64,000 nt of DNA, taken from Escherichia coli. Its GTDB lineage: Bacteria > Pseudomonadota > Gammaproteobacteria > Enterobacterales > Enterobacteriaceae. The stretch lies in the NCBI RefSeq assembly GCF_003334815.1, contig NZ_QOWO01000005.1; one strand, given 5' to 3'. This document shows, one piece after another, positions 45,216 to 45,821 of the stretch. Under the pieces are notes generated by a model that was not told where the DNA came from, made no database searches, and saw only the letters and a program-made list of their open reading frames with translations. Each line of letters begins with the position of its first letter. Position 1 is the first letter of the stretch. A program made the translations under genes and the position numbers.

Positions 45216-45821
45216 TTATGCACCTGCGGCAATCAGTAACTGCGCAATCTCTTCAAAGCCCCGTTCCCGCGCCAGTTCCAGTGGCGTTTTGCCATATTTA
45301 TCGGTCAGATGCGGGCTGGCACCGTGTTCCAGCAATAACTGCACAATCGCCTGCTGTTTAATACCACCATCATTAAGCACAATCGCTTCCAGTAGCGGCG
45401 TCCAGCCTACATGGTTGGTCTGGTTAACGTTAATCTCCGTATGCGCCAAAAGCTCTTTTACAATACTTAAATGGCCTTTTTCACAGGCAGGCGTCAGGCC
45501 GACACCGCCAAAACGGGTTACGCAATTAAGATCGGGTTTAGCCGGTAAAATAATTCGTAGTAGCGTTAAATCATCGTTCAGACAGCTAATTAAAAAAGGA
45601 TTTAAACAGGTATGATCTTGCTTATTAATATCCGCTCCGGCATCAATTAATGCCTGAACGCAAGCATATTGCTGATATAAACTTGCCAGCGTAATTGCCG
45701 TTTTCCCCTGACGATCGCAGGTATTAATATCGACACCCAGCGCAAGGCAGGTTTTTACTTTATCGATATCACCCTGTTGTGCAGCCAATAAATAGTCGGC
45801 AGGTAGATTTTTTATACTCAT
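45216..45821 (-). CDS. yahD: Ankyrin-repeat protein YahD
   Basis: 201-aa ORF with tandem ANK-like repeats (..GKTAITLASLYQQYACVQALIDAGADINKQD.. / ..GWTPLLEAIVLNDG..LLLEHGASPHLTDKYGKTPLELA..). Confidence 0.85.
   Translation of the reverse strand: MSIKNLPADYLLAAQQGDIDKVKTCLALGVDINTCDRQGKTAITLASLYQQYACVQALIDAGADINKQDHTCLNPFLISCLNDDLTLLRIILPAKPDLNCVTRFGGVGLTPACEKGHLSIVKELLAHTEINVNQTNHVGWTPLLEAIVLNDGGIKQQAIVQLLLEHGASPHLTDKYGKTPLELARERGFEEIAQLLIAAGA

Follow-up and report, generated by a model that had tools for sequence, protein, structure and literature searches.

What does a small protein built of ankyrin (ANK) repeats do at the head of a catabolic gene cluster in Escherichia coli? The question is posed by yahD, a gene within a 64,000-nucleotide window (the whole stretch of DNA analysed here, from contig NZ_QOWO01000005.1 of RefSeq assembly GCF_003334815.1), where it precedes yahE, yahF, yahG, yahI and yahJ. 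The answer that we favour, holding it about as readily as we doubt it, is that YahD is a non-catalytic binding protein dedicated to the catabolic module that it heads. Public annotation and papers already record the gene, its composition of ANK repeats and its place in the operon, and to that extent the finding is known. What is new here is modest, and comprises the cross-phylum linkage of this ANK family to genes for AllFGH-type carbamoyltransferases and YahJ-type amidohydrolases, together with an exported lipoprotein subfamily.

Fold and family of YahD

The yahD coding sequence runs from 45216 to 45821 on the minus strand, with an ATG start, a TAA stop and 201 encoded residues in the list of open reading frames (ORFs), and carries the RefSeq name 'yahD: ankyrin repeat domain-containing protein'. 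Of 5426 complete E. coli genomes, 5079 carried the gene and about 6% lacked it. The Pfam profiles Ank_2, Ank_4, Ank and Ank_5 matched across residues 12–200, with a best independent E-value (i-E) of 1.6e-11; Ank_2 (PF12796) was placed at residues 78–174 (i-E 1.6e-11), 12–69 (3e-08) and 158–200 (2e-05). These matches, which include Ank PF00023, and the solenoid fold described below assign YahD to the ankyrin-repeat superfamily. No domain other than ANK, and no catalytic domain, was detected with Pfam, with NCBIfam-type profiles or in the predicted structure. Since YahD consists almost entirely of ANK repeats and has no detectable catalytic domain, a binding role rather than catalysis, as proposed in the first-pass annotation of the window, is sensible.

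The structure was predicted with AlphaFold2 from a 60-sequence family alignment, which yielded a model with a predicted local distance difference test score (pLDDT) of 97.3, a predicted template modelling score (pTM) of 0.91, and 12 helices arranged as six pairs. Foldseek superposed this model on solved ANK proteins and designed ankyrin repeat proteins (DARPins) with template modelling (TM) scores of 0.78–0.93, the closest bacterial structures being 5D66 (TM 0.93, 42% identity) and 3HRA (TM 0.89, 36% identity). In a phmmer search of PDB sequences, YahD matched DARPins and ankyrin-1 at E-values of 1e-70 to 1e-48 and, end to end, the bacterial proteins of about 200 residues 5d66_A (E 2e-40) and 3hra_A (E 4e-30). 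The earlier description of a 201-residue protein made almost entirely of ANK repeats is thereby borne out, structure prediction having returned the ANK fold. The ratio of nonsynonymous to synonymous substitution rates (dN/dS) was 0.07–0.12 against E. albertii, Kluyvera, Raoultella and Citrobacter, and yahD is therefore a constrained gene under purifying selection and not a chance ORF. Taken together, YahD is a predicted soluble cytoplasmic protein with six ankyrin repeats, whose boundaries were set by us from the helix pattern and the sequence:

45216..45821, minus strand: yahD, ankyrin-repeat protein without a signal peptide (ORF, Pfam, RefSeq name, AlphaFold2, Foldseek, dN/dS)
45708..45797, minus strand: ANK repeat 1, residues 9–38, N-terminal cap (helices 3–16 and 19–27; DARPin repeat alignment)
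45609..45707, minus strand: ANK repeat 2, residues 39–71 (helices 42–48 and 52–60; Pfam Ank 39–69)
45510..45608, minus strand: ANK repeat 3, residues 72–104 (helices 75–81 and 85–94; family signature NPFL; invariant R103 and F104 at its end)
45408..45509, minus strand: ANK repeat 4, residues 105–138 (helices 109–114 and 118–127; signature GGVGLTPACEKGH)
45294..45407, minus strand: ANK repeat 5, residues 139–176 (helices 142–148 and 154–165; signature GWTPLLEAIVLNDGG..QQ)
45219..45293, minus strand: ANK repeat 6, residues 177–201, C-terminal cap (helices 180–187 and 190–198; Pfam Ank_2 158–200)

YahD falls within a family that was defined in this analysis and has no curated entry, namely stand-alone proteins of about 200 residues with six repeats and the motifs NPFL, R[FMY]GG..PA, GWT.L.EAI and LNDGG..QQ, which are invariant or nearly so over the 60 sequences from several phyla. 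The sequence 5d66_A aligned end to end with the family profile (E 1.3e-64). The two solved members, ABAYE2397 from Acinetobacter baumannii (5D66) and EF0377 from Enterococcus faecalis (3HRA), resemble YahD as stand-alone six-repeat bacterial ANK proteins of this length; unlike YahD, they are structural-genomics entries without an assigned function, and no AllFGH-type genes have been reported beside them. An EF0377 mutant showed only slightly raised virulence in Galleria (PMC2912369).

In the family alignment, G106, P111 and G116 of repeat 4 are invariant and E114 is nearly so. W140, T141, E145 and G152 of repeat 5 are likewise invariant, and this repeat exceeds the ANK consensus by about five residues, seen as an insertion in the alignment with DARPins. 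R103, F104, E114 and W140 depart from the ANK consensus and would lie at the canonical target-contact positions, on the concave face of repeats 3–5. DARPins and ankyrin-R/B share with YahD the fold and the 33-residue repeat, their target-binding positions being conserved in kind, whereas YahD is set apart from DARPins as a natural bacterial protein with the motifs NPFL, RFGG, GWTxLxEA and LNDGG..QQ and the five-residue insertion in repeat 5.

The same searches bear on whether YahD might be a eukaryote-directed effector or an anti-phage component, an identity that is effectively refuted. Weak, partial matches were found to models of Legionella Dot/Icm Ank effectors and to the ANK regions of PADLOC candidate proteins, but these lie far under the curated cutoffs and involve generic ANK repeats only: the best effector model, AnkG, gave 71.5 bits against a cutoff of 500, the PADLOC alignments covered positions 236–364 of 392 in PDC-M72A and 740–832 of 880 in 'Ankyrin', and YahE had no match. 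YahD qualifies neither as a Dot/Icm Ank effector nor as part of a PADLOC defence system; it has no secretion signal, its gene context is metabolic in every lineage, and the family occurs in soil and water bacteria without host association.

Conserved gene order around YahD-type genes

Close orthologues of YahD with 71–82% identity were found in Kluyvera, Citrobacter, Raoultella and Dryocola. Beyond these, an exhaustive phmmer search of 1.84 billion representative proteins returned mostly giant eukaryote-like multi-ANK proteins, and its useful yield was three relatives of the 200-residue type (P0242, P0247 and P0152), with 42–60% identity. In a Wohlfahrtiimonas metagenome-assembled genome, the gene for the relative (60%) is immediately followed by AllF- and AllG-type genes and a gene for a 510-residue membrane protein, with no AllH gene; that of Cytobacillus firmus (56%) lies downstream of two YahJ-like amidohydrolase genes. 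A scan of one genome per species over 100,044 species, based on two family-specific peptide motifs, detected relatives in at least 593 free-living species of Proteobacteria, Firmicutes, Actinobacteria, Nitrospira, Chloroflexi and Deinococcus. The first-pass argument that ANK repeats are uncommon among free-living enterobacterial proteins is thus overstated: few are known in E. coli, where YahD and ArpA are named together as ANK-repeat proteins (PMC7033237), but the family itself is widespread. ArpA, whose gene lies outside the window, is like YahD a protein of unknown function.

Eighty loci were kept from the scan, and their content was read by tblastn with the E. coli Yah proteins and by clustering of the neighbouring ORFs. 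Among loci whose ANK protein is at least about 47% identical to YahD, 38 were informative, two or three incomplete ones having been set aside, and in about 32 of these the ANK gene stands directly 5' of AllF/AllG-type or YahJ-type genes: 28 have AllF/AllG-type genes 3' of it, four have a YahJ-type amidohydrolase gene only, and about six have neither. YahJ-type amidohydrolases are the neighbours that recur most often, with the AllF/AllG-type complex second.

The arrangements fall into four patterns (<> denotes divergent genes). The full module, yahB<>ANK-E-F-G-(516-residue membrane protein)-I-J, occurs in Escherichia, Kluyvera, Citrobacter, Serratia, Providencia, Zophobihabitans, a Klebsiella sp., a Cedecea sp., Budvicia and Pseudocitrobacter. 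Enterobacter and Lelliottia have the module without yahE, which is also lost in Wohlfahrtiimonas and Sutterella, where the order is ANK-F-G. A minimal yahB<>ANK-yahJ form, with yahEFGI lost, occurs in Erwinia persicina, Cedecea neteri and two Enterobacter spp. In Lysinibacillus and Brevibacillus the order is PucR<>ANK-E-F-G-NCS1 permease-I, followed in Lysinibacillus by a cytidine-deaminase-fold gene and an M20 hydrolase gene. ANK-E-F-G was found in two Actinobacteria, and ANK genes lie beside YahJ-like amidohydrolase genes in several Paenibacillus, such ANK-amidohydrolase pairs recurring in Paenibacillus and Cytobacillus. The pairing of YahD with YahJ is echoed in E. faecalis, where ef_0377, encoding the 3HRA protein, is apparently co-transcribed with the amidohydrolase-family gene ef_0378 (PMC2912369).

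Because the linkage is kept despite gene loss, reordering, change of regulator (LysR versus PucR), change of permease and transfer to Firmicutes and Actinobacteria, YahD is likely to work with the yah pathway, and this constitutes the strongest evidence for the role that we favour. It also makes YahD a concrete and cheap target for a partner search; a partner, if found, would define the job of a widespread bacterial ANK family of about 200 residues with two solved structures.

A generic or decaying passenger, travelling with the module but having no pathway-specific role, would account for some features of the gene, and we consider this quite unlikely. An IS1 element interrupts yahD at one site in at least seven complete E. 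coli genomes of diverse origin, leaving two pieces of equal total span in an otherwise identical gene (the junction, at about nucleotide 207 of yahD or window position ~45615, was read in strain YPE10 only), and the gene is missing altogether from the 6% of genomes mentioned above; the yah module appears to be decaying in some E. coli lineages. Moreover, the G+C content of yahD and yahE is 45–47%, compared with 56–58% for yahF–J, and six or seven close relatives lie in unrelated contexts. Against a passenger stand the low dN/dS, the 53–60% identity that E. coli YahD retains to Firmicute and Wohlfahrtiimonas copies, and the 5' position of the ANK gene, which was kept through several independent rearrangements and losses in distant phyla. 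Between E. coli and Kluyvera, identity is 80% for YahD and 60% for YahE, compared with 88–95% for YahF, G, I and J, and the yah operon is therefore two-part in both composition and evolution (44313–45821 versus 38871–44323).

More distant relatives with 40–48% identity, from Paenibacillus, Bacillus, Neobacillus and Chloroflexi (loci L051–L087, with L054, L063, L070 and L080 as examples), mostly carry lipoprotein signal peptides, such as LLLQGC or LAGC. Nitrospira relatives have hydrophobic N-terminal extensions, and the metagenomic P0152 is a tandem double ANK module with a lipobox. Judged from these signals, the lipoprotein relatives are a predicted exported branch of the YahD-type ANK family.

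Proposed module chemistry and candidate partners

RefSeq and the ORFs agree with the first-pass annotation in placing yahD at the head of the yahD–J cluster, where it is the first in a run of genes on one strand, namely yahD, yahE, yahF, yahG, 'yahH' (a repetitive extragenic palindromic, REP, element), yahI and yahJ. In this run, yahE begins 39 bp past yahD, yahF overlaps yahE and yahG overlaps yahF. The genes yahDEFGIJ have been treated as one operon (PMC4765031), and all genes from yahD to yahJ are counted in the E. coli 'y-ome' of genes without known function (PMC11551758). The features downstream of yahD are:

44313..45176, minus strand: yahE, 287 residues, GTG start, Pfam AllH, formerly DUF2877 (ORF, Pfam, BLASTP)
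42776..44323, minus strand: yahF, 515 residues, FdrA/AllF family (ORF, profiles, BLASTP)
41357..42776, minus strand: yahG, Pfam AllG, formerly DUF1116, as split ORFs (ORF, Pfam, BLASTP)
41214..41356, no strand: REP elements in the yahG-yahI spacer, site of the rejected 'yahH' (sequence; withdrawn, with REP at this interval, in PMC11551758 and PMC4765031)
40263..41213, minus strand: yahI, 316 residues, carbamate kinase (BLASTP, profiles)
38871..40253, minus strand: yahJ, 460 residues, amidohydrolase with twin-arginine signal MKESNSRREFLSQSGKMVTAAALFGTSVPLAHA (profiles; PMC7549933)

By Pfam, YahE is AllH, YahF combines HMA_AllF_N with coenzyme A (CoA)-ligase domains, and YahG is AllG. BLASTP against the K-12 paralogues gave 38% identity for YahF-AllF, 45% for YahG-AllG, 25% for YahE-AllH/YlbF and 38% for YahI-AllK/YbcF. 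YahF, G, E and I are thus paralogues, within the same Pfam families, of AllFGH and AllK of the allantoin pathway; the all cluster differs in having no ANK gene and no YahJ-type amidohydrolase and in its order F-G-H-K. In 2024 AllFGH was identified as oxamate carbamoyltransferase, the recombinant enzyme being active without an ANK protein (PMC11326118), and AllK is described as the catabolic carbamate kinase (PMC9843812). YahJ falls within the cytosine-deaminase-like PRK06846 subfamily of amidohydrolases. Its twin-arginine signal (SRREFLS...AHA, within the N-terminal 33 codons) was present in all 30 Enterobacterales orthologues examined, and it has been listed as a twin-arginine translocation (Tat) substrate of unknown function (PMC7549933); no signal peptide was found in the Firmicute YahJ-type homologues examined. 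From the signal, the first hydrolytic step of the pathway would be periplasmic in Enterobacterales.

Most Enterobacterales carry between yahG and yahI a gene for a 516-residue polytopic membrane protein (e.g. L010 14582–16132), which had no match in Pfam, NCBIfam or PDB sequences and is probably the pathway transporter, of an uncharacterised family. E. coli, Kluyvera, Raoultella and Pseudocitrobacter are without it, and these same genera carry yahC, which is confined to the Escherichia/Kluyvera/Raoultella/Pseudocitrobacter form of the module.

On the basis of these sequence relationships, the yah cluster looks like a second catabolic transcarbamylation route for a ureido or nucleobase-derived compound. 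The 'metabolic operon' of the first-pass annotation is accordingly metabolic but not generic, as it encodes an AllFGH-type carbamoyltransferase, a carbamate kinase and a Tat-exported amidohydrolase. The AllFGH identification gives the cluster a plausible chemistry, namely phosphorolytic cleavage of a ureido compound with gain of ATP. The ankyrin gene is the sole yah component without a counterpart in the all pathway. In the proposed scheme, YahJ would act first on a ureido or nucleobase-like nitrogen compound, in the periplasm via Tat in Enterobacterales; YahEFG, the paralogue of AllHFG, would then act as carbamoyltransferase, and YahI as carbamate kinase. YahD would contact one of the module enzymes through the concave face of repeats 3–5 (R103, F104, E114, W140), the YahJ-type amidohydrolase being the first candidate and the YahEFG complex the second, and its binding would stabilise, assemble or tune this partner. 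We infer binding to a pathway protein from the fold and the linkage, while the choice of partner and the effect of binding are put forward conditionally.

A more specific and more tentative proposal generalises this scheme to the family: YahD-type ANK proteins may be conserved accessories of ureide/nucleobase modules that bind either a YahJ-type amidohydrolase, as Tat escort or rider in Enterobacterales, or an AllFGH-type carbamoyltransferase. If so, no ANK-based enzyme chaperone or adaptor would have been defined in E. coli before YahD, and an equivalent task outside the cell would fall to the exported lipoprotein relatives of Firmicutes. The nearest functional analogy is AnkB of Pseudomonas aeruginosa, which, going by the title of the report by Howell et al. 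of 2000, is reportedly required for optimal activity of the catalase KatB and is said to be periplasmic. As compared at the generic ANK level, and from that title, AnkB too is a small ANK protein in an operon with an enzyme; its partner, however, is a catalase and not an amidohydrolase or a carbamoyltransferase, and yahD precedes its neighbours whereas ankB, judging from the operon name katB-ankB, presumably follows its enzyme gene.

Several observations weigh against a dedicated binding role. No neighbour is common to all loci, as some have F and G without J and others J without F and G; the six or seven close relatives in other contexts are from Herminiimonas, Vitreoscilla, Arthrobacter and one Bacillus, and the neighbours of distant relatives vary, including a YbbY-like NCS2 permease, deaminases or a cytidine-deaminase-fold gene, and two-component systems. 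Much of the synteny could stem from one module that was inherited or horizontally transferred, and not from independent events. The ANK protein is not a generic subunit of AllFGH-type enzymes, because recombinant AllFGH is active without it and an ANK gene is absent from the all cluster of K-12; profile searches with YahD found ANK families only and no homology to AllF, AllG or AllH, whose homologues are YahF, G and E. In Enterobacterales, YahJ has a Tat signal and YahD does not, so that the predicted compartments differ, and in some Paenibacillus loci the situation is reversed, the ANK protein being a lipoprotein and the amidohydrolase lacking a signal. An AlphaFold2 model of YahD fused to YahJ through a (GGGGS)6 linker gave a pTM of 0.58, approximately the value for two undocked domains, each domain being confident individually, and so lends no support to a complex; this model is weak, as it was computed from 13 genome-paired sequences as a monomer and without predicted aligned error (PAE). 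Finally, no functional study of YahD, and no direct interaction or phenotype data, were found in the literature. An injection error led to the removal of the yahD knockout from the Keio metabolome screen (PMC5293155). In a screen of uropathogenic E. coli for inducible cell-division inhibitors, a fragment spanning yahD, yahE and part of yahF (UTI89 361,550–364,162) was a high-stringency match with 17-fold enrichment, the responsible gene among the three not being singled out (PMC6206680).

The Tat signal of YahJ also raises the possibility that Enterobacterales YahD is a dedicated escort, acting either as a proofreading chaperone until the metal is loaded or as a signal-less hitchhiker that is co-exported, which we regard as very unlikely. 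Dedicated chaperones are common among Tat substrates, which can also take partners along. The signal is universal among the 30 orthologues, the minimal yahB<>yahD-yahJ modules of Erwinia, Cedecea and Enterobacter spp. retain just this pair beside the regulator, and the many exported lipoproteins among Firmicute relatives indicate that the fold works outside the cytoplasm. On the other hand, the amidohydrolases of the ANK pairs in Paenibacillus (L055, L049) and Cytobacillus (L004) have no signal peptide at all, ANK-AllF-AllG loci without YahJ exist, and the signal peptide in the fused model, weak as that is with 13 paired sequences, was disordered (pLDDT ~26) at the pTM given above. Profile searches and Foldseek showed ANK families and the ANK fold only, with neither similarity to the TorD/DmsD family nor a TorD-like or NapD-like fold. 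A universal role as Tat chaperone of YahJ-type enzymes was rejected, the Firmicute partners being without signal peptides.

Control region and state of the cluster in the window

Upstream of yahD, the window contains the following features:

45822..46078, no strand: divergent yahC-yahD intergenic region, the expected home of the yahD promoter
46079..46576, plus strand: yahC, 165 residues, DUF1097 membrane protein, divergent from yahD (ORF, RefSeq, Pfam)
46668..47600, plus strand: yahB, 310 residues, LysR-family regulator (ORF, NCBIfam)

The best NCBIfam relatives of YahB are AllS and PunR, both under cutoff, and almost every Enterobacterales locus has yahB and the ANK gene in divergent orientation. 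At 45925–45945, about 110 bp upstream of the yahD start, the intergenic region contains a perfect 10+10 palindrome, TTGTTGAATA/TATTCAACAA; this block and its flanking blocks are conserved over five genera, with counterparts in E. albertii, Kluyvera, Raoultella and Pseudocitrobacter, and the palindrome is a candidate operator for YahB. A consensus scan found no minus-strand sigma-70 promoter upstream of yahD, as expected if the yahD promoter is activator-dependent.

This control region bears on a regulatory role, in which YahD would influence induction of its own operon through contact with the pathway regulator (YahB in Enterobacterales) or through sensing of a ligand, much as IkappaB-type ANK proteins act by sequestering transcription factors; we consider this unlikely. 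In most loci, a regulator gene is adjacent to the ANK gene or diverges from it (LysR in Enterobacterales, Paenibacillus and Sutterella; PucR in Brevibacillus and Lysinibacillus), the conserved palindrome is present upstream of yahD, the faster evolution of YahD and YahE fits non-catalytic parts, and a small-molecule site could be formed by the conserved R, F, E and W of the concave face. However, the adjacent regulators come from unrelated families, for both of which one conserved ANK surface is not parsimonious, the Wohlfahrtiimonas locus has no nearby regulator, and the adjacency is a trivial consequence of the ANK gene being first in the operon.

On the other side of yahD, the spacer to yahE was examined by sequence and by alignment of 9–11 genera:

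45177..45215, minus strand: yahD-yahE spacer, 39 nucleotides

The spacing is likewise 39 bp in Kluyvera and Raoultella, and a terminator scan found no terminator-like site in the spacer. A GGAG directly past the yahD stop, kept in nearly all aligned genera, lies 31 nucleotides ahead of the yahE GTG, farther than a normal Shine-Dalgarno spacing would allow. The GGAG and the spacing are the only conserved features of the spacer. Two candidates were rejected: a hairpin over the yahE start (ACACACC/GGTGTGT), which would bring the GGAG and the GTG together and which was absent from the RNAalifold consensus, with 68.8% pairing versus 66.4% in shuffled sequences and no compensatory changes, and a 13-codon TTG-started leader ORF, whose start codon is missing in Kluyvera and other genera.

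In the window, yahG carries an extra A at 42261–42267 (seven A instead of six), which splits it into ORFs of 195 and 290 residues. The insertion occurred in none of about 5065 complete E. coli genomes having the segment, and the closest genome, that of strain PEC1009, is identical at 8900 of 8901 bases across yahJ–yahB. The frameshift reflects either a mutation private to this strain that makes yahG a pseudogene or an error in sequencing the homopolymer, and because of it the yah cluster in the window is probably not intact; were the frameshift real, this strain would have no working YahEFG enzyme. Organisms with an intact module that includes a permease, such as Citrobacter, Serratia and Lysinibacillus, are suggested for a substrate search.

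Two minor observations concern neighbouring genes in other strains. In strain YPE10, yahB is frameshifted too. Lastly, pdeL (yahA) is intact in the window (47642–48736) and is interrupted by IS2 in the comparison strain 504239 (locus L001 7756–10180).

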